DNA from: a virus
DNA: 64,000 nt
Direction: 5' to 3' (one strand)
Virus record (IMG/VR): IMGVR_UViG_3300012988_000001
Span: 246,414 to 310,413 of that record
In this document: positions 2,908-58,844 of the stretch, in pieces
Layout of the letters: the number at the start of each line of letters is the position of its first letter
Position numbering within the stretch: the first letter of the stretch is position 1
Notes under the pieces: model-generated
The model's input: only the letters and a program-made list of their open reading frames with translations
Databases searched by the model: none
What the model was told of the DNA's origin: nothing
Made by a program: the position numbers and the translations under genes

Positions 2908-4881
2908 ATGACCAAACAAAAGAAATCCTCATCCGTGCTTTCTGAACATGACGTTCAGCGACTAAACGACTATCAACATGCTCGCATCCGTACTGAAATG
3001 TACTTAGGTTCACGTTCTGTTCATGAACACCAAGTAGTTCTTTTCGGAGAAGAAGGTTACAATGTTCAGAATCTAGAATGGGTTCCAGCATTGATTACTG
3101 CATTCCGTGAGATCATTGATAACTCCCTTGATGAGTTTAAAAAAGCTGGAACGAAAGATCCAGTACTAAAGATTGATTACAACGAAGAAGATTTATCATT
3201 TAGTATTAGTGATAACGGTCGTGGTATTCCAATCGATTACGTACCAGAGTTTGATGTACACTTGTGTACTATGGTACTAACAGAGACTAAGACAGGTCGT
3301 AACTTTGACGATTCAAAACGCGAAGGTACTATCGGTCAGAACGGTCTAGGTGGTTCCATTACAATGTGCGTTAGTTCTAAAGCAGAACTAGAGATTCACC
3401 GTGCGGGTCGCCCGTACAAAACAGTAGCATCTAACGATGGCTATGATGGTATCTATAAGTTCACACAGAAGTTTAAAGAAGGCACAATCCTTTTCCCTGA
3501 ACTAGATATTCAAGAACCTAACATTCGTAAGGTTCAAGCGGATAAAACTGGAACTTCTATTAGCTTCACGCTAAGTCCTGAAGTATTCAAAAACCGCAAC
3601 CTACCAACTGCGTTAGTATTCAGTATTCTTAAAGAGATTGCTTCAGCTAACCCAGCTTACAAGATTGTCCTTAATGGCAAGAAAATTGCTGTTAAAAACA
3701 CCCCAGAGAAAACTCTCTTCGGTGCAAACAAAATGATGAGCCTAAACGTCAAAGACGAAAGCATTGGTTTTGATAGTACTTTCTATATTGTCCCAAATGC
3801 TGTCCAAGGTATGAACACCAACTTCCATATGCAAGGTATTGTAAACAATGCTCCAGCATTTGATGGTGGTACACACCTCGAAACGTTCAAGAAGTTCTTC
3901 TCCCTAGGCGTTAGTACTGCTCTTGAGAAAGAAGCAAAGAAACGCAAGATGACACCTAACCGTGCTGATATCGAAGAAGGGCTAATGATTTATAATGTGA
4001 CTACAATGAACGCACCATCGTTCAACTCACAGATTAAATCTAAGCTAACTAACGAAAATGTTATTGCTCCAGTGAAAAAAGCGATGACTCCTGAATTCTT
4101 CGATGAACTTGTTAAAAAGAACAAAGAATGGGTTGATGAGATTTTCACTCGTACTTCAGAGCGTACCAATAAGAAAGATGCTGATGAAGATCGCCGTCTA
4201 GCTAAGAAGTTGCTAAAATCTAAAGTTGCCAAACTACTTGATGCAACTGGTACAAACCGTGAAGAATGTATTCTACTAATTGCAGAAGGTGATTCCGCTG
4301 TTAGTAACATGTCTGCTGCTCGTGATTCCAAGAAGCATGGTATTCTACCATTGCGTGGTAAAATCATGAACGTAAACGGAACGGAGAAAACTAAAGCCCT
4401 AATGGATAGTGATTCCCTAAAGGATATCATGGCATCTATCAACCTAATCCCCGGTCAGAAAGCAGTACGTTCAGAATTGAACTACGGTAAGCTATATATC
4501 TGTGCCGATGAAGATGAGGATGGTAAAAACATTGGTGCGTTAGTAGTTAACTTCCTATTCAAATTCTGGCCTGAACTATTTGAAGACCCAGAAAACCCAT
4601 TTGTATATGTTTTCAAAACACCATTTATTATCCTTGAGAAAGGAAAAGAAAGTCGTTACTATTACGGTCACAATGTGGACGAATATAACCCAGAAGAATG
4701 GAAAGGTTGGAAAGCAACTCGTGCTAAAGGATTGGGTACTCTAGAAAAGAGTAACTTCCGTGATGCATTAACAAACGGCGTAGCAGTCGCTATTATCGAT
4801 GATGGTTCACTAGGGGCAACTCTAGACCTAATCTTTAATAAAGACCGTGCAGACGACCGTAAAGAGTGGATGGAAGAATAA
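2908..4881 (+). CDS. DNA topoisomerase II large subunit (T4 gp39-like, GyrB/ParE-type ATPase plus Toprim, unsplit)
   Basis: 657 aa. The N-terminus MTKQKK...DYQHARIRTEMYLGS matches the T4 gp39 start. GHKL ATPase and Toprim (EGDSA) motifs are present. Confidence 0.85.
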   Translation: MTKQKKSSSVLSEHDVQRLNDYQHARIRTEMYLGSRSVHEHQVVLFGEEGYNVQNLEWVPALITAFREIIDNSLDEFKKAGTKDPVLKIDYNEEDLSFSISDNGRGIPIDYVPEFDVHLCTMVLTETKTGRNFDDSKREGTIGQNGLGGSITMCVSSKAELEIHRAGRPYKTVASNDGYDGIYKFTQKFKEGTILFPELDIQEPNIRKVQADKTGTSISFTLSPEVFKNRNLPTALVFSILKEIASANPAYKIVLNGKKIAVKNTPEKTLFGANKMMSLNVKDESIGFDSTFYIVPNAVQGMNTNFHMQGIVNNAPAFDGGTHLETFKKFFSLGVSTALEKEAKKRKMTPNRADIEEGLMIYNVTTMNAPSFNSQIKSKLTNENVIAPVKKAMTPEFFDELVKKNKEWVDEIFTRTSERTNKKDADEDRRLAKKLLKSKVAKLLDATGTNREECILLIAEGDSAVSNMSAARDSKKHGILPLRGKIMNVNGTEKTKALMDSDSLKDIMASINLIPGQKAVRSELNYGKLYICADEDEDGKNIGALVVNFLFKFWPELFEDPENPFVYVFKTPFIILEKGKESRYYYGHNVDEYNPEEWKGWKATRAKGLGTLEKSNFRDALTNGVAVAIIDDGSLGATLDLIFNKDRADDRKEWMEE

Positions 4882-21789: not shown

Positions 21790-21978
21790 ATGATGCAATT
21801 TCTCTTGTTGGTTAGCGTTCTACATTATGGTCAAACCCAGCAGTTGCAACCTCTAAATGTAGAGACATTGCAGATTCAAACACGCTCCTGTGAAAACGCA
21901 GAAGCAAAAATTCGTGAGTACTATGCAAATGAACGGTACTCACGTATCATTAACCTAAAATGCATGAGGATGGATTAA
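21790..21978 (+). CDS. small protein with signal-peptide-like N-terminus
   Basis: 62 aa. Confidence 0.3.
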   Translation: MMQFLLLVSVLHYGQTQQLQPLNVETLQIQTRSCENAEAKIREYYANERYSRIINLKCMRMD

Positions 21979-21979
21979 T

Positions 21980-22348
21980 ATGATCTGGATTGCCCTTATT
22001 ACGGTAGTAACTCTTTATGTGCTGTACTTCATGTTTCGCTTTGCAGCAACAATTCAGGGTGTTATTTTAAAGACTGATACTAAATCAGCATTTGGCTTCA
22101 TCGCTGACTATCCAAAGTCTTGCATTATTGCAGCTTTAGTGGTTATGGGTTTGAGCCTTAGCCAGTACTACAATCATATCTACGCAATGTATGATTGCAC
22201 AGTACAGCAGAAAATCCATAAGGCCGCTAATAGTGAGTACTCATGGTATAATGCAGAATGTAACTTCCAAGATAAGAACGGTGTATTCATTAACATGAAA
22301 CGCGTCCGGGGTCTACCCGAAGGTGCAAACGAACAAGTAGAGGAATAA
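21980..22348 (+). CDS. small membrane protein (2 predicted TM)
   Basis: 122 aa, hydrophobic segments. Confidence 0.4.
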   Translation: MIWIALITVVTLYVLYFMFRFAATIQGVILKTDTKSAFGFIADYPKSCIIAALVVMGLSLSQYYNHIYAMYDCTVQQKIHKAANSEYSWYNAECNFQDKNGVFINMKRVRGLPEGANEQVEE

Positions 22349-22851
22349 TGATGTTTGAGTGGGATCAAGAGAAGCATGAGTACTTCGATCCTACTGAAGA
22401 CGGATTTACCCATATCAATACCTATAGTAAAGGTCGTACCGAATTGGGGAGGATGCTATCAAATTTCGCATTCTCCCCTTTTGTGTATGAAGAATATGGT
22501 AAGTTCAATTCAGTAGAGGCTTTTTGGTACTGGTACTTAACCGGACAAAAGCATGATGACTTACGTACCCTAAGTGGTTCTTATGCTAAAGTAAAAGGTC
22601 AGAGTTATCATGCTGACCGTACTGAGCATTCACTTACAGAAGAAACCATAGAAGTGATGCAAGGTGCTATTATATGTAAAATTGCACAGAATGAAAAACT
22701 ACAGGAGATGCTAATTTCTAGTACTCTTCCATTCTGTCATTATTACTATATGCATGGTCGGGTTATCAATCCATTTGATGGTCATGATTGGTTCTCTGAA
22801 ACATTGGAGGATATCAGGACTGCGTTAAAATCTGGGACAACTGACCATTAA
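22348..22851 (+). CDS. NADAR/YbiA-like (DUF1768) protein, putative ADP-ribose-nucleobase hydrolase
   Basis: LSNFAFSPF...SVEAFWYWYL... aligns with E. coli YbiA FSNFAAWPI...SEHYFQAQKF. C-terminal LQEML...L..CHYY parallels LRALL...LVEH. Confidence 0.5.
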   Translation: MMFEWDQEKHEYFDPTEDGFTHINTYSKGRTELGRMLSNFAFSPFVYEEYGKFNSVEAFWYWYLTGQKHDDLRTLSGSYAKVKGQSYHADRTEHSLTEETIEVMQGAIICKIAQNEKLQEMLISSTLPFCHYYYMHGRVINPFDGHDWFSETLEDIRTALKSGTTDH

Positions 22852-22862
22852 TGTGATATAAT
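22834..22862 (+). promoter_or_regulatory. class B promoter (GGGACA-17-TGaTATAAT) reading into an ORF-free region
   Basis: ctgggacaactgaccattaatgtgatataat. Confidence 0.6.
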
Positions 22863-23297
22863 AAATGTAGATGTAACAATTGTGGCTGCAATGCAGACGT
22901 ATTAAACCGAACCCCTTGAAAACGTAAAGGGACGATGAGCATGACCACACATGCGAAGTGCAGATGAAACCCGTTCGCGGCAATGCGGCACTATAAAGAG
23001 CGACGTAAGGCACGTAAACGCTCCAAGATAGACATATGAGGTCACTCACCAATATGCTAAGGGAGATGCTTAGGCATCACGTATAGAGCTTGTTCGAATA
23101 GGTTCTATACGAGTGTAGTAAGACTACGACCGTTGCACATGACTGTGATAGAGAGAAACAGAGCAACCCGCTTTCGTTCTTTGACCAATTTTAGTACGCT
23201 ATAGTTACGTCTAAAATTCAGAGAAATTCACAATTCGAAAATTCCGATGCCACCAGCGTCAGAACTTAACTCAGTACTTTAATTAGTACTTTTTTAT
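22863..23297 (+). ncRNA. candidate structured non-coding RNA (~430 nt, ORF-free, GC-richer than surroundings)
   Basis: No ORF above 15 codons on the + strand. Bounded by a class B promoter and a hairpin plus U-run terminator at 23273-23297. Internal hairpins include cgtatagag...tctatacg. Confidence 0.35.
23273..23297 (+). terminator. rho-independent terminator (AGTACT-ttaatt-AGTACT plus T-run)
   Basis: Read directly. Confidence 0.5.
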
Positions 23298-23395
23298 TGT
23301 CTTCATTCCCCCAGTGGGGGATGAAATTGCCTCAACAAACCTCGTCAGTAATAAAAGTACAAAATGAATTGAGTTACGATAGTAACGAAAATTCT

Positions 23396-23424
23396 TTGAC
23401 AATCGTAAGATTGGCAAATATGAA
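23396..23424 (+). promoter_or_regulatory. class A promoter (TTGACA-17-TATGAA)
   Basis: A second TTGACA-17-TATGAT lies 31 nt downstream. Its -10 overlaps the ATG of the next ORF. Confidence 0.5.
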
Positions 23425-23450
23425 CCTTGACAACAATACAGGAATAAAGT

Positions 23451-23687
23451 ATGATAACAGCAATTTGTGAAATGGCTGACCAAGCCACTGGTATTGAAGA
23501 TGCCAGATTGATCGAATCTCATGCTGAATCAGTAAAAGAGTACGAAGATGAAATGGATGAGATGATGGGTATGTATGGCTATCGTCTATACTTCTATGAC
23601 ATTGAGTGTACTGGCATTGAGGATTGGACTGAATCAGAAATATATGAGTTTATGCGTGTAAACGCACATTTGGAGATTGATGCATGA
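23451..23687 (+). CDS. small highly acidic protein (78 aa)
   Basis: ORF rich in D/E. Confidence 0.4.
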   Translation: MITAICEMADQATGIEDARLIESHAESVKEYEDEMDEMMGMYGYRLYFYDIECTGIEDWTESEIYEFMRVNAHLEIDA

Positions 23688-23863
23688 AAGTTAGATTAGA
23701 AGAAGATTACCCAGAGTACGAATACGGCCCTCGTGGTGGTGATATCCTTGAAGTAGTTTCACAGGATGAAGAAGAAGGTGTATTCTATTGCAAATTTGGT
23801 GATGAAACAGATTTTGCCATTTATGAATACGAAGTGGAAGAGGTTATCGAAGATGACCAATAA
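23684..23863 (+). CDS. small highly acidic protein (59 aa)
   Basis: ATGA overlap with the upstream ORF. MKVRLEEDYPEYEYGPRGGDILEVVSQDEEEG... Not in the ORF track because it is under 60 aa. Confidence 0.35.
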   Translation: MKVRLEEDYPEYEYGPRGGDILEVVSQDEEEGVFYCKFGDETDFAIYEYEVEEVIEDDQ

Positions 23864-24815
23864 ACTAAATCGTTCCATTGGCTGCTTAATGGGACTAGCA
23901 GTAGGTGATGCTGTCGGAACCACATTAGAGTTTAAAGAACGTGATTATGAGAACATTACTGATATGGTAGGTGGTGGTCCGTTTGATTTAGATCCGGGAC
24001 AATGGACTGATGATACCAGTATGGCACTATGCCTAGGTTACGCACTACTTGAAGGTCACGACATCAATAGCATAACAGAAAGTATAAAGTGGTCAGAAGC
24101 CCAATTAGTGAATTATGTTGATTGGTACAGAAACGGTTACTGTAGTTCTAATGGTCACTGTTTTGATATTGGTGGTACTACCCGCAACGCATTACTAAAT
24201 TACATTCGTGATGGTGTTTTGCGTAACAATGATCATTTCCTAGATTCAGGTAATGGTAGCCTTATGCGTCTTGCTCCTATTCCAATCTATTACAATACGA
24301 ATAACGCAGAAGAGTTGTTCACTCTTGTGTATGCTGCTGATCTAAGTAGTAGTACTACACACGCTAGCGAATTATGTCGTCAATCTTGTATTGCTTTCTC
24401 AGTACTTTTGAATCGTGCTATCAATGGCAGTACTAGTGAAGGTTCTCCGAATAAAGCGAATCTCTTAGACTTCCCAGCACAAGTTTGGAGAACATTTGGC
24501 GTTTCAAGTAATTTAGTACTTGACATAATGAACGGATCGTATCAAAATAAGACTCGTGATGAAATCAGTTCGAGTGGTTATGTGATTGATAGCCTAGAAG
24601 CCGCTCTATGGGCGTTCTGGAACACTGATAACTTCCGTGACGCAATCCTATTAGCTGCTAACTTAGGTGACGATGCAGACACCGTAGCGGCGATTACAGG
24701 ACAGATTGCAGGTGCATTCTATGGCCTAGATGGTATCCCTGATGATTGGGTACAGAAGATTGCGAAGAAAGATAAGATTTTGAAATTAGCAGAGGACTTG
24801 TATAATGCAGGTTGA
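23853..24815 (+). CDS. ADP-ribosylglycohydrolase (DraG/ARH family)
   Basis: GCLMGLAVGDAVGTTLEF, TDDTSMAL, FDIGGTTRNAL, GNGSLMRLAPI, DADTVAAITGQIAGAFYG motifs. The ATG at 23853 is the start chosen here. The six-frame track starts the ORF at an upstream in-frame ATG (23766). Confidence 0.85.
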   Translation: MTNKLNRSIGCLMGLAVGDAVGTTLEFKERDYENITDMVGGGPFDLDPGQWTDDTSMALCLGYALLEGHDINSITESIKWSEAQLVNYVDWYRNGYCSSNGHCFDIGGTTRNALLNYIRDGVLRNNDHFLDSGNGSLMRLAPIPIYYNTNNAEELFTLVYAADLSSSTTHASELCRQSCIAFSVLLNRAINGSTSEGSPNKANLLDFPAQVWRTFGVSSNLVLDIMNGSYQNKTRDEISSSGYVIDSLEAALWAFWNTDNFRDAILLAANLGDDADTVAAITGQIAGAFYGLDGIPDDWVQKIAKKDKILKLAEDLYNAG

Positions 24816-44814: not shown

Positions 44815-44906
44815 TTGCCGGTAGGCTAGAGTCCGATGCCACCCACCTCATAAGTGGATACAGTTAACCAGACACACCGAGGGTTAGAATCCCTCCCGGC
44901 GAACCA
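44815..44906 (+). tRNA. tRNA with extended variable region. Anticodon loop CUCAUAA (CAT: Met or Ile2?)
   Basis: Acceptor TTGCCGG/CCGGCGA, T-arm gagggttagaatccctc, CCA. The long variable region pairs poorly, so the isotype is uncertain. Confidence 0.45.
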
Positions 44907-55533: not shown

Positions 55534-55620
55534 ATTTACTGTTAGCTCAGATGGTAGAGCGGTTGTACTGGTGAGACTCCAGACAAAAGGGACACTGGTT
55601 CGATGCCAGTACAGTAAACC
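55534..55620 (+). tRNA. atypical tRNA-like gene. It has acceptor, D-arm, T-arm and CCA, but an 8 to 10 nt expanded anticodon or variable region and no clean anticodon loop
   Basis: Acceptor TTACTGT/ACAGTAA, D-arm tagctcagatggtagagc, T-arm actggttcgatgccagt, CCA. The middle folds as gtactgg-tgagact-ccagac. Confidence 0.3.
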
Positions 55621-55625
55621 ACAAT

Positions 55626-58756: not shown

Positions 58757-58844
58757 GGGAGAGTGATGGAAAGGCATACATAGGCATCTCCAGTGTCTTA
58801 GTCTTGATGACAATGCAAGGTTCGAGTCCTTGTCTCTCCCACCA
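58757..58844 (+). other. tRNA-like element (acceptor GGGAGAG/CTCTCCC, T-arm caaggttcgagtccttg plus 1 nt, CCA)
   Basis: Read directly. The anticodon arm was not resolved. Confidence 0.3.

Follow-up and report, generated by a model that had tools for sequence, protein, structure and literature searches.

What is encoded in the 599-bp gap at positions 22852 to 23450 of this 64,000-nucleotide stretch of viral DNA (the window; positions 246,414 to 310,413 of IMG/VR record IMGVR_UViG_3300012988_000001), which lies between intact, unrelated genes and is without any conserved open reading frame (ORF)? A preliminary description, made from the letters of the window alone, had proposed a structured noncoding RNA (ncRNA) of about 430 nt, bounded by a promoter and a terminator. 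The segment is indeed richer in G+C than its surroundings (0.43 to 0.47 at 22800-23200, compared with 0.37 to 0.39 in the flanks). It had also been called free of ORFs above 15 codons on the plus strand, which is not literally true, as a 26-codon ATG ORF (22951-23031) and a 23-codon TTG ORF (23133-23204) are found there; what stands is that no frame on this strand is conserved. Among 34 homologous copies, the strand, frame, and position of the longest stop-free stretch all vary, so that nothing is conserved as coding. The placement of the locus in an ADP-ribose-reversal island is right for the downstream gene, an ADP-ribosylglycohydrolase (PF03747, E = 1.9e-68), and unsupported for the upstream 167-amino-acid ORF, which has no Pfam match. 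Paralogues of the RNA sit in quite different neighborhoods, so its association with ADP-ribose genes is incidental. No second copy of the RNA was found inside the 64-kb window.

A promoter had been read at 22834-22862, and a sigma-70-type extended -10 promoter is present there on the plus strand, with GGGACA (22834-39), a spacer of 17, TATAAT (22857-62), and an upstream TG (22854-55), in total 10 of 12 matches. Shuffled sequence contains promoter-like sites at least as often as this region does. The motif TGnTATAAT at 22854-22862 is invariant, with T2, G3, T5, A6, T7, A8, and T10 unchanged in 34 of 34 aligned copies, and this invariance indicates that the site is not a chance match. Its distance upstream from the conserved RNA is constant, as is expected of a sigma-70 extended -10 element, and the predicted transcription start is near A22869.

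Homologues were collected by pattern scan and nhmmer, which gave 46 nonidentical copies in 14 clusters, 34 of them aligned. Chance accounts for 59 of the 66 pattern matches in bacterial genomes (about 48 expected) and for 3 of the 45 in IMG/VR. By blastn, the gap was matched in 62 jumbo-phage records, in three to five places each. Jumbo phages related to RaK2, 121Q, GAP32, and BF carry four to five dispersed, syntenic paralogues per genome, a full copy being present in RaK2 itself, and nucleotide identity is 66 to 86% across several jumbo-phage genera with differing flanking genes. In Serratia, Enterobacter, Buttiauxella, and Escherichia coli, small integrated elements carry single copies, typically with the integrase on one side and a CI-like repressor on the other. 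The copy in an E. coli chromosomal island is 80.6% identical to the E-type copy of phage BF and has both promoter and terminator, and seven further chromosomal or metagenome-assembled copies adjoin integrases, CI-like repressors, or host genes. A search of the neighbors of the chromosomal copies with Pfam, PHROGs, and PADLOC found no partner protein shared between contexts; these neighbors are integrases, CI/Cro-like regulators, ParB-like proteins, and proteins without assignment.

The proposal of a structured ncRNA is strongly supported by covariation over 34 to 46 homologues, by G-U pairs specific to the plus strand, and by the lack of a conserved ORF. In the curated structure, 85 base pairs are 92.8% paired across the 34 aligned copies versus 77.1% in shuffled alignments and 38 to 43% when the strands are slid, and 50 of the 85 have changed on both sides. 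The covariation score of 0.461, against 0.173 in shuffles, was exceeded by none of 500 shuffles, and RNAalifold found 37 of 64 pairs to be compensatory. Compensatory pairs thus go beyond both the shuffled and the slid controls, in a region where no reading frame is conserved. Compared with shuffles, the fold has a z score of -3.9 on the plus strand and -1.8 on the minus strand, and the many G-U and U-G pairs are sensible only for a plus-strand RNA.

About 25 helices make up the predicted fold, along with four long-range pairings that covary (PK-a to PK-d), all on the plus strand. Its main body (a 5' domain, a central domain, and a 3' core) runs from the predicted start at 22869 to the end of helix H14 at 23262. 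PK-a joins the leader UGUGG (22881-85) to CCACA (22945-49) in the loop of H2 (22939-22954), and the leader strand is directly followed by a small hairpin, CUGC/GCAG (22886-96). Across the 34 copies, PK-a is formed by 18 distinct leader/loop duplexes of 5 to 9 bp, for example, CUGAUUGA/UCAAUCAG, CUGUUGAAU/GUUCAACAG, and ACAACGG/CCGUUGU. H1 (CCCUU/AAGGG, 22913-22931) carries the conserved loop GAAAAYGUA, and all five of its pairs are compensatory. H3 (AGUGC/GCACU, 22957-22992) encloses a conserved internal loop, AGAUGAAAC/CAAUGCG, and the nested H4 (CCG-UUCG-CGG); both helices are 100% paired, four of the five H3 pairs are compensatory, and the H4 tetraloop is replaced in other copies by an extension of 27 to 45 nt. 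PK-d pairs AUG (22983-85) with CAU (23033-35), the latter within the conserved strand GAUAGACAUAU. Its variants are AUG/CAU, AUA/UAU, and ACA/UGU, with GUUUAC/GUAAAC in EJP2 and Hallingskeid, and alignment columns 233/294 hold G-C 25 times and A-U 9 times with zero mismatches. H5 (GAGCG/CGCUC with an inner ACGU/ACGU, 22998-23023), preceded by an invariant AUAAAG, is 97% paired with five of five pairs compensatory. The covariation alignment places H6 (UGAG/CUCA), the conserved single strand ACCAAUAUGCUAAGGGAG, and H7 (GAUGC/GCAUC) at 23037-23078, where UAAGGGA is invariant; H7 is much longer in other paralogues.

The hairpin cgtatagagc...gttctatacg, singled out in the preliminary description, exists as H8 (23080-23111), with 11 pairs, of which 10 show compensatory changes. 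Its loop, UUCGAAU (23093-99), forms the 7-bp PK-b with AUUCGAA (23233-39); this pairing is 99.6% paired, six of its seven pairs are compensatory, and it is replaced by UUCAUAC/GUAUGAA or UUUAUGUAG/CUACAUAAA in chromosomal copies and by UUGAAU/AUUCAA in RaK2. Downstream lie H9 (GUAG-UAAGA-CUAC, 23115-23127; two pairs compensatory) and the most conserved core, GACCGUUGCA...GAUAGAGAGAAACAGAGCAACCCGCUUUCG (23128-23176), which has long invariant runs. Within the core, H12 (GAGAG, 23151-55, with CUUUC, 23171-75) and PK-c (GUUGC, 23132-36, with GCAAC, 23163-67) are each 100% paired, with the respective variants GGGAG/CUUCC and GUUGU/ACAAC. H11 (UGUGA/UCACA) and H13 (UCU/AGA), together spanning 23144-23232, close around the core and around a long hairpin (23187-23218) that is optional, being absent in types C, D, E, and F and in some type-B copies; they are 99 to 100% paired, with compensatory changes in three of five and three of three pairs, respectively. 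H14 (GAUGC-CACCA-GCGUC, 23246-23260) carries the first CGUCAG box, and the alignment contains GAUGC/GCGUC versus GACGA/UCGUC there, the automated count being blurred by a one-column gap.

At its 3' end, the RNA departs from what had been proposed. The terminator-like hairpin is present, formed by AGUACU/AGUACU at 23273-23290 and followed by U6 (23290-23295), but with -5.5 kcal/mol and only two G-C pairs it is weak and fails terminator-scan criteria. In other copies the hairpin has -7 to -12 kcal/mol. The hairpin, with covarying stems, is conserved in paralogue types 1, A, B, and E and absent from the orthologue in phage EJP2 (EJP2_1) and from types C, D, and F; in all, it is missing from 15 of the 34 aligned copies. 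The terminator is therefore optional within this RNA family. Covarying conserved structure extends about 125 nt beyond it, to approximately 23419, and, together with the several paralogue types that have no terminator, this makes the unit about 550 nt long (22869-23419) rather than 430 nt.

This additional segment begins with H15, a 10-bp hairpin at 23302-23325 (UUCAUUCCCC-AGUG-GGGGGAUGAA), of which the "second strong hairpin" of the preliminary description, tcccccagtggggga, is the tip. H15 is found in all copies, those of RaK2 and the chromosomes included. It has no double changes; C-to-U changes opposite G have occurred (U-G 11, 6, and 2), and these are tolerated only in plus-strand RNA. The conserved tail CCUCAACAAACCUCGUCAG (23330-23348) contains a second CGUCAG box and a nearly invariant CAAA-C-CGUCA, and alignment analyses resolved no pairing partner for it. 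A closing helix proposed by RNAalifold, GAUGAG (22934-39) with CUCGUC (23342-47), can be no more than a candidate: its two strands hardly vary, and the few changes that do occur (CCCGUC in 121Q, GUUGAG in XbC2) are uncompensated. The tail is followed by an AT-rich stretch. The 3' module (23366-23413) consists of an outer stem, GAAUU/AAUUC (23366-70/23390-94), surrounding GUUAC-GAUA-GUAAC (23373-86), and a last hairpin, CAAUC-GUAA-GAUUG (23400-13). The inner hairpin is longer in most other copies and there has the conserved loop GAACGNNGUGA, and the last hairpin covaries (CAAUC/GAUUG, CAUUC/GAAUG, CAUAC/GUAUG, and CUAAC/GUUAG).

Comparison with Rfam 15 (4,227 models, among them RNase P, group I/II introns, tmRNA, 6S, ROOL, GOLLD, HEARO, and the small ribozymes) gave no family match on the RNA. 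At gathering thresholds, only tRNAs were found in the whole window; at an E value of ≤10, the intervals 22600-23600 and 22865-23425 yielded only 10- to 17-bit chance matches to miRNA and snoRNA models, and at an E value of ≤0.1, eight diverse family members yielded nothing on the RNA. ARAGORN found no tmRNA in the window, in agreement with Rfam. Three resemblances were pursued and rejected. RNase P RNA (M1) is similar in size (about 400 nt) and in having long-range pseudoknots, and two short stretches of E. coli M1 presumably resemble the core at 23128-23176. However, no RNase P model matches at an E value of ≤10, the change of CUUUC to CUUCC is compensated in the alternative helix H12 and uncompensated in a P4-like AAAG/CUUU pairing, and five paralogues per genome would be unexpected. 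GAUGAG-stem-CGAA at 22934-22957 recalls a hammerhead, but the catalytic C-U is not conserved and no covariance model matches. The H8 loop UUCGAAU is similar to a tRNA T-loop, but paralogues have UUGUAUA or UCAUAU instead, and compensating changes tie the loop to a distant strand. Literature on structured and noncoding RNAs of jumbo phages and prophages contained no description of the family that we could find, and the family is apparently previously undescribed.

The nearest likeness is to ROOL and GOLLD (RF03087 and RF01998), with which the RNA has in common a size above 400 nt, many helices and pseudoknots, encoding by phages or prophages, no associated ORF, frequent occurrence in tRNA-gene-rich genomes or regions, and no known function. 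In descriptive terms it belongs to the ROOL/GOLLD-like class (>400 nt, multipseudoknot, ORF free, phage or prophage). By sequence and structure there is no match between them; ROOL and GOLLD are hosted by phages of Lactobacillales or of the rumen, in contrast to the Enterobacterales jumbo myoviruses that carry this family, and they are usually present in a single copy per genome, compared with four to five diverged paralogues here. ROOL and GOLLD form homo-oligomers in cryo-electron microscopy (cryo-EM) (PMC12286853), and by analogy the covarying long-range pairings of this RNA could in principle be intermolecular. Large RNAs are also transcribed in PA5oct, a jumbo phage that is related to the RaK2/121Q clade and depends on its host's RNA polymerase: RNA sequencing (RNA-seq) revealed four ORF-free "putative lncRNAs" of 236 to 619 nt (ncRNA001 to -004), of which ncRNA001 and ncRNA002 each account for 1 to 5% of phage reads (PMC7318152). 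ncRNA002, the one of the four that was compared, has no homology to the present family by nhmmer at an E value of ≤10.

We consider the chances about even that positions 22869 to approximately 23419 of the plus strand are a stand-alone gene for a large structured ncRNA of an undescribed family that acts in trans, and we favor a trans-acting folded RNA that serves as a protein-binding scaffold or decoy or as a ribozyme. From the sequence we infer the promoter, the ends of the RNA, and its abundance. The host RNA polymerase would transcribe the RNA without phage factors, and the host-type promoter therefore suggests expression early in infection. Part of transcription would end at the weak hairpin and U6, giving an RNA of about 430 nt, and the remainder would read through H15, the tail, and the 3' module, giving about 550 nt. 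Produced abundantly from four to five paralogous genes, the RNA would act in trans once folded, binding a macromolecule of the host or the phage as a scaffold, a decoy, or the core of a ribonucleoprotein, and it may be multimeric and possibly catalytic. The accessory-gene position of the island copy, between integrase and repressor, suggests a role in conflict between mobile element and host or between elements. Several observations count against this model. The different contexts share no partner protein beside the RNA, and most jumbo-phage copies run in the same direction as the genes downstream of them. Conserved structure 3' of the terminator is not what one would expect of a simple terminated RNA gene, and four to five copies with a position at a strand switch also fit replication origins.

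Replication origins are indeed the main rival, albeit one that we regard as unlikely. A promoter-driven RNA would stay hybridized downstream as an R-loop and prime the leading strand, as in T4 or with ColE1 RNA II; the four to five copies would be the multiple origins of the phage, and the copy in an island would serve to get the island replicated. T4 has at least five origins with R-loop primers, oriE relies on an early promoter that is independent of factors, and active origins are located at strand-switch regions (PMC3016281). Similarly to oriF, oriG, and oriE, the present copies are promoter-driven noncoding units dispersed over a T4-related genome, with an early host-type promoter as at oriE and with one type (B/E) at a strand switch, adjoining baseplate-hub genes. 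The AT-rich sequence after the tail, the conservation past the terminator, the movement of a self-contained module between elements, and the Serratia fonticola copy that adjoins two ParB/RepB-like genes point the same way. However, T4 origins share no motif and require no elaborate RNA fold (PMC3016281), whereas all copies here, whose origin activity is putative, share one elaborate fold, and four covarying pseudoknots with long invariant single strands point to the function of a folded RNA. ColE1 RNA II is likewise about 550 nt long, is transcribed from a sigma-70 promoter, and has a fold that matters for its action at a downstream site, but it is not known to have a pseudoknot core, and unlike it the present family is absent from all 72,556 PLSDB plasmids searched by blastn; a conserved antisense unit similar to RNA I was not seen. 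Prophage-like elements place the RNA beside the integrase rather than replication genes, and the GC skew of the window shows no inflection at 23 kb, which is a weak test.

The RNA could instead be a cis-acting leader, either a huge riboswitch or attenuator working on the hairpin and U6 or an RNA similar to HK022 put that makes the polymerase read through terminators, an explanation to which we give little weight. Most jumbo-phage copies are codirectional with downstream genes; in types 1 and A the order is promoter, structured RNA, terminator, and same-strand genes, several copies per genome head gene arrays, and the island RNA points through cI toward the cro-side operon. Types C, D, and F, with no terminator and codirectional genes, read straight into these genes, so that the RNA there would form the 5' portion of an mRNA. 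Against this, B/E copies are flanked on both sides by opposite-strand genes, which indicates that codirectionality is not general and that the RNA is more than an mRNA leader. Moreover, the downstream genes differ among types, the fold is unchanged in the many copies in which the terminator is absent, and sequence conserved 3' of the U-run cannot influence that terminator. The put RNAs, which are also promoter-proximal structured phage RNAs with terminators downstream, are about 70 nt long, consist of two stem-loops, and act only in cis. Known antitermination RNAs in general are many times smaller than the present RNA, which is about seven times the size of put, and one of its paralogue types has no codirectional downstream gene. 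Less probable still is a new ribozyme, self-processing or trans-acting, that might, for example, release itself from a read-through transcript. The size, the four pseudoknots, and the invariant unpaired blocks at junctions resemble large ribozymes, and terminator-less copies would need processing to yield a discrete RNA, but no Rfam ribozyme matches, including RNase P, group I/II introns, and small self-cleavers, and the hammerhead-like GAUGAG...CGAA is not preceded by a conserved CU before GA. A decayed protein-coding gene, or the remnant of an intron or other mobile element, is very improbable. It would agree with the automatically annotated "hypothetical proteins" in the gap of 7t3, PHA46, Hallingskeid, 121Q (gp516), and Yen9-04 (g347 and g348), but these occupy different strands, frames, and positions, an open frame is conserved nowhere, indel lengths do not keep to multiples of three, and substitutions follow base pairing rather than codons. 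As for an intron, which had been thought unlikely from the outset, no intron model in Rfam matches, and intact, unrelated genes stand on either side.

Among bacterial and phage RNAs, large ones with a complex tertiary fold are rare, and almost all classes found to date have proved to be ribozymes, riboswitches, or unexpected RNA assemblies. This family, whose fold has about 25 helices, four long-range pairings that covary, and long junction strands without variation, is equally intricate, and it appears to be a new class of large structured RNA, one that occurs in culturable coliphages. A bolder reading, doubtful though not far-fetched, is that this four-pseudoknot class is an essential and abundant early product of jumbo phages like RaK2 and 121Q, with either a new activity of its own (a ribozyme or self-assembling RNA particle) or a role as the structured primer common to all their replication origins, and that small integrative islands of enterobacteria captured copies to parasitize or block infection by jumbo phages. 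The presence of four to five ancient paralogues in virulent jumbo phages and of a single accessory gene in temperate-type islands points to a role in conflict of phage with host or island, or to a phage replication origin of a new kind. Because host phages such as Sharanji, 121Q, and PBECO4 grow on laboratory E. coli K-12, knockouts, RNA-seq, pulldowns, and cryo-EM are feasible. Gaps of 600 to 850 bp in dozens of published jumbo-phage genomes are thus not empty, and some of them are now annotated with spurious "hypothetical proteins."

The 599-bp ORF-poor gap at 22852 to 23450 contains a conserved, intricately folded plus-strand RNA gene with a host-type promoter. It lies between a 167-aa ORF without a Pfam domain (22348 to 22851) and a 78-aa ORF (23451 to 23687), beyond which an ADP-ribosylglycohydrolase gene is encoded (PF03747, E = 1.9e-68). 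The promoter proposed in the preliminary description is present at 22834 to 22862 (GGGACA-17-TATAAT, with TG upstream of the -10 element), and the raised GC content reported there was borne out (0.43 to 0.47 within the gap versus 0.37 to 0.39 outside). The claim that the plus strand holds no ORF above 15 codons was too strict, as a 26-codon ATG ORF (22951 to 23031) and a 23-codon TTG ORF are found, but neither is conserved, and no reading frame is conserved across the copies of the RNA. The TG-TATAAT box does not vary among the 34 aligned copies, which most naturally suggests that the host polymerase transcribes the RNA without modification. For 22869 to 23297, the predicted folding energy of the plus strand is -115 kcal/mol (z = -3.9 versus dinucleotide shuffles), compared with z = -1.8 for the reverse strand. 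ARAGORN found neither tRNA nor tmRNA in the gap, and the suggested cmscan search against Rfam yielded no family there even at E <= 10.

Comparison of the copies revealed invariant blocks between stems whose two sides change in concert (alignments A1 to A3). RNAalifold predicted 64 pairs from 22 copies, 37 of them with compensatory changes. The curated structure, built by inspection and by scanning 40 copies for covariation and tested on 34 copies, comprises 85 pairs in 16 helices with 92.8% of cells paired, versus 77.1% with partners shuffled and 38 to 43% with partners slid by 1 to 3 columns. Both sides change at 50 of the 85 pairs, and the covariation score of 0.461 (0.173 for shuffled partners) was reached by none of 500 shuffles. 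Four long-range pairings, pseudoknots PK-a to PK-d, cross other helices. In PK-a, the 5' leader pairs with the loop of hairpin H2 (22939 to 22954), and 18 different duplexes of 5 to 9 bp are seen among the copies. PK-b joins the loop of H8 (23080 to 23111), the hairpin singled out in the preliminary description, to a strand 140 nt downstream through 7 bp (99.6% paired, six of seven pairs compensatory). PK-b reads UUCGAAU/AUUCGAA in the window and UUGUAUA/UAUACAA or UCAUAU/AUAUGA in other paralogues, with additional variants in chromosomal copies and RaK2. PK-c (GUUGC/GCAAC) lies within the invariant core, and PK-d (AUG/CAU) varies to AUA/UAU and ACA/UGU, with GUUUAC/GUAAAC in EJP2 and Hallingskeid. 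The helices contain many G-U pairs; read from the opposite strand, these would be A-C mismatches, which identifies the plus strand as the functional one. The full structure can be drawn for the window copy with every pair canonical. Three near-invariant GAUGA boxes (22934 to 22938, 22963 to 22967, and 23320 to 23324) and two CGUCAG boxes (23257 to 23262 and 23343 to 23348) could form mutually exclusive pairings, i.e., a switch; covariation did not discriminate among these.

The hairpin with a U6 run taken for a terminator exists at 23273 to 23295; at -5.5 kcal/mol and with two G-C pairs, it falls below the terminator criteria of the scan tool. Paralogue types 1 (that of the window), A, B, and E keep a counterpart in which the stems covary and the U-run is invariant; the EJP2 orthologue and all type C, D, and F copies lack it. 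The second hairpin of the preliminary description (C5/G5, 23307 to 23321) was also recovered. It forms the tip of a 10-bp hairpin (23302 to 23325), which, like the tail CCUCAACAAACCUCGUCAG (23330 to 23348) and a 3' module (23366 to 23413), is conserved across the family, RaK2 and the chromosomal members among them. The 10-bp hairpin shows C-to-U changes opposite G, and the last hairpin occurs in four covarying versions; both observations point to selection on the plus-strand RNA past the U6 run, and from this conserved structure the functional unit is predicted to span about 550 nt (22869 to ~23419). Either transcription partially reads through the U6 hairpin or there are two RNA isoforms. In most copies, the hairpin of the 3' module has a conserved 11-nt loop, GAACGNNGUGA, which is carried by Munch, Mimasvirus and Eneladusvirus phages, RaK2, and the Serratia fonticola chromosome (records L001, ~2200 to 2235; L110, ~3590 to 3625, minus strand; L127, ~1790 to 1815). 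The window and EJP2 have a short GUUAC-GAUA-GUAAC hairpin in its place.

The window derives from a jumbo myovirus of ~350 kb belonging to the RaK2/121Q group, and virulent jumbo phages hold the RNA as four to five old paralogues. The 64-kb window contains a single copy. By blastn, the gap matched 62 phage records at 66 to 86% identity, each with three to five separate matches, among them Asteriusvirus (121Q, PBECO4, and EJP2), Mimasvirus (GAP32, CBB, and XbC2), Eneladusvirus (BF and fHe-Yen9-04), and Erwinia phages. Nearest over the gap were Salmonella phages Munch and 7t3 and Klebsiella phage fENko-Kae01 (85 to 86%), the last being 92% identical in the RNA core. Searching IMG/VR with conserved-core patterns and then with nhmmer recovered 46 non-identical copies, which form 14 sequence clusters; three pattern hits were chance matches. 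The phage copies occupy unannotated or dubiously annotated gaps of 600 to 850 bp with varying neighbors: type 1 lies upstream of the ADP-ribosylglycohydrolase gene, type B/E between endonuclease VII and baseplate-hub genes, and type C upstream of a 175-aa ORF and dam, the position at which RaK2-type Klebsiella phages carry a full-length, more divergent copy. In type C copies, a strong hairpin and U-run directly follow the invariant TGnTATAAT box (L027, 1166 to 1215, Munch 40.5 kb; L028, 1100 to 1130, GAP32; L023, 2826 to 2875, 121Q), and the Munch and GAP32 records label this element a terminator; an RNA of this type would therefore have a terminator-like structure at its 5' end.

Outside jumbo phages, integrated elements carry the RNA as a single accessory gene. 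Searched with the core pattern, 185,579 bacterial and archaeal genomes gave 66 hits (~48 expected by chance), of which nhmmer identified seven as full-length members: the Serratia fonticola GTA-SR07 chromosome, Enterobacter chinensis, Serratia sp. 2723, Enterobacteriaceae RIT714, and three MAG contigs. By blastn, 2 of 5,426 complete E. coli genomes carry it. The RNA adjoins a large serine recombinase or tyrosine integrase at five such loci and lies at the element edge, adjoining host genes, at two further ones; a CI-like S24 repressor is convergent with it at three. A common module consists of the RNA, the CI-like repressor, a Cro-like wHTH protein, and a 286-aa unknown protein, accompanied by a tyrosine integrase in a Buttiauxella MAG (L066, 2855 to 5899), where a PDC-S73-like candidate defense gene lies nearby, and by a large serine recombinase in E. 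chinensis (L118, 127 to 3026). In E. coli LR-29-1, the RNA lies in the middle of an integrase-bearing island of ~10 kb inserted between ybaA and ffs, the gene for the SRP RNA (L129, NZ_AP027515.1, 3473 to 3484 kb), within an unannotated 1.4-kb gap. The integrase is of the tyrosine type and is cut by IS3, and the island also contains a small serine recombinase and DUF4326, DUF488, and dual-OB genes. This RNA copy shares 80.6% identity with the E-type one of Serratia phage BF and brings a promoter and a terminator of its own; the RNA gene thus moves as a self-contained unit from one mobile element to another.

We favor, at about even odds, an RNA that acts in trans through its tertiary structure. 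In that case, the folded molecule would provide a protein with a scaffold or a decoy and might also form multimers or have catalytic activity. This reading draws on the strand context of type B/E, the differing neighbors of the types, the high dosage implied by several strongly promoted copies, and the fact that the module functions, or at least is retained, across unrelated genomic contexts. A cis-acting leader or antitermination RNA would suit the co-directional copies, but the B/E paralogue is flanked on both sides by opposite-strand genes and cannot be an mRNA leader, which leaves this explanation improbable.

The main rival, itself unlikely, is a replication origin at which the RNA primes DNA synthesis. 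T4 offers a parallel, with at least five R-loop origins, an early promoter at oriE, and active origins at strand switches (PMC3016281). However, T4 origins share neither motif nor fold, the element occurs on none of 72,556 plasmids, and a skew inflection is absent from the window. A ribozyme, with which the architecture is compatible, is without specific support and is improbable. A decayed gene or intron is excluded for practical purposes by the lack of an Rfam match, the covarying pairs, and the absence of a conserved frame.

The RNA is alike in kind to ROOL and GOLLD, large, ornate, phage-associated RNAs of unknown function (PMC12286853), but matches none of the 4,227 families in Rfam, those two included. 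In size and setting it has an analogue in ncRNA002, an RNA that RNA-seq has established for the related jumbo phage PA5oct, but the two have no detectable sequence relationship. This "putative lncRNA" is a GC-rich, ORF-free, 451-nt region in the terminal repeat, defined by RNA-seq (L030, 452 to 902; PA5oct, 21951 to 22401). A full-text literature search, beyond whose reach most subscription-journal papers lie, found the RNA nowhere described. On these grounds we rate it a new RNA class. Several phages carrying it grow on laboratory E. coli, which makes experiments on expression and function straightforward.

Downstream of the RNA, a near-consensus sigma-70 site (TTGACA-17-TATGAT, 11 of 12 matches) at 23427 to 23455 overlaps with its TATGAT the ATG of the 78-aa ORF, so that either the start of this ORF is mis-set or the site is an internal promoter; the -35 element of the EJP2 equivalent is TTTACA. 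The ADP-ribosylglycohydrolase ORF (region 23684 to 24815) is listed from the ATG at 23766 and overlaps a preceding 59-aa ORF by 98 nt. Its Pfam match begins only at residue 39, and the Munch orthologue has 321 aa, so that translation probably starts downstream of the listed ATG. Elsewhere in the window, ARAGORN predicted 14 plus-strand tRNA genes between 27429 and 61372, only 11 of which were confirmed by Rfam; those called by ARAGORN alone are a 92-nt tRNA-Met (44815 to 44906), a "tRNA-???" with the four-base anticodon ctgg (55536 to 55621), and an 86-nt tRNA-Gly (58759 to 58844).
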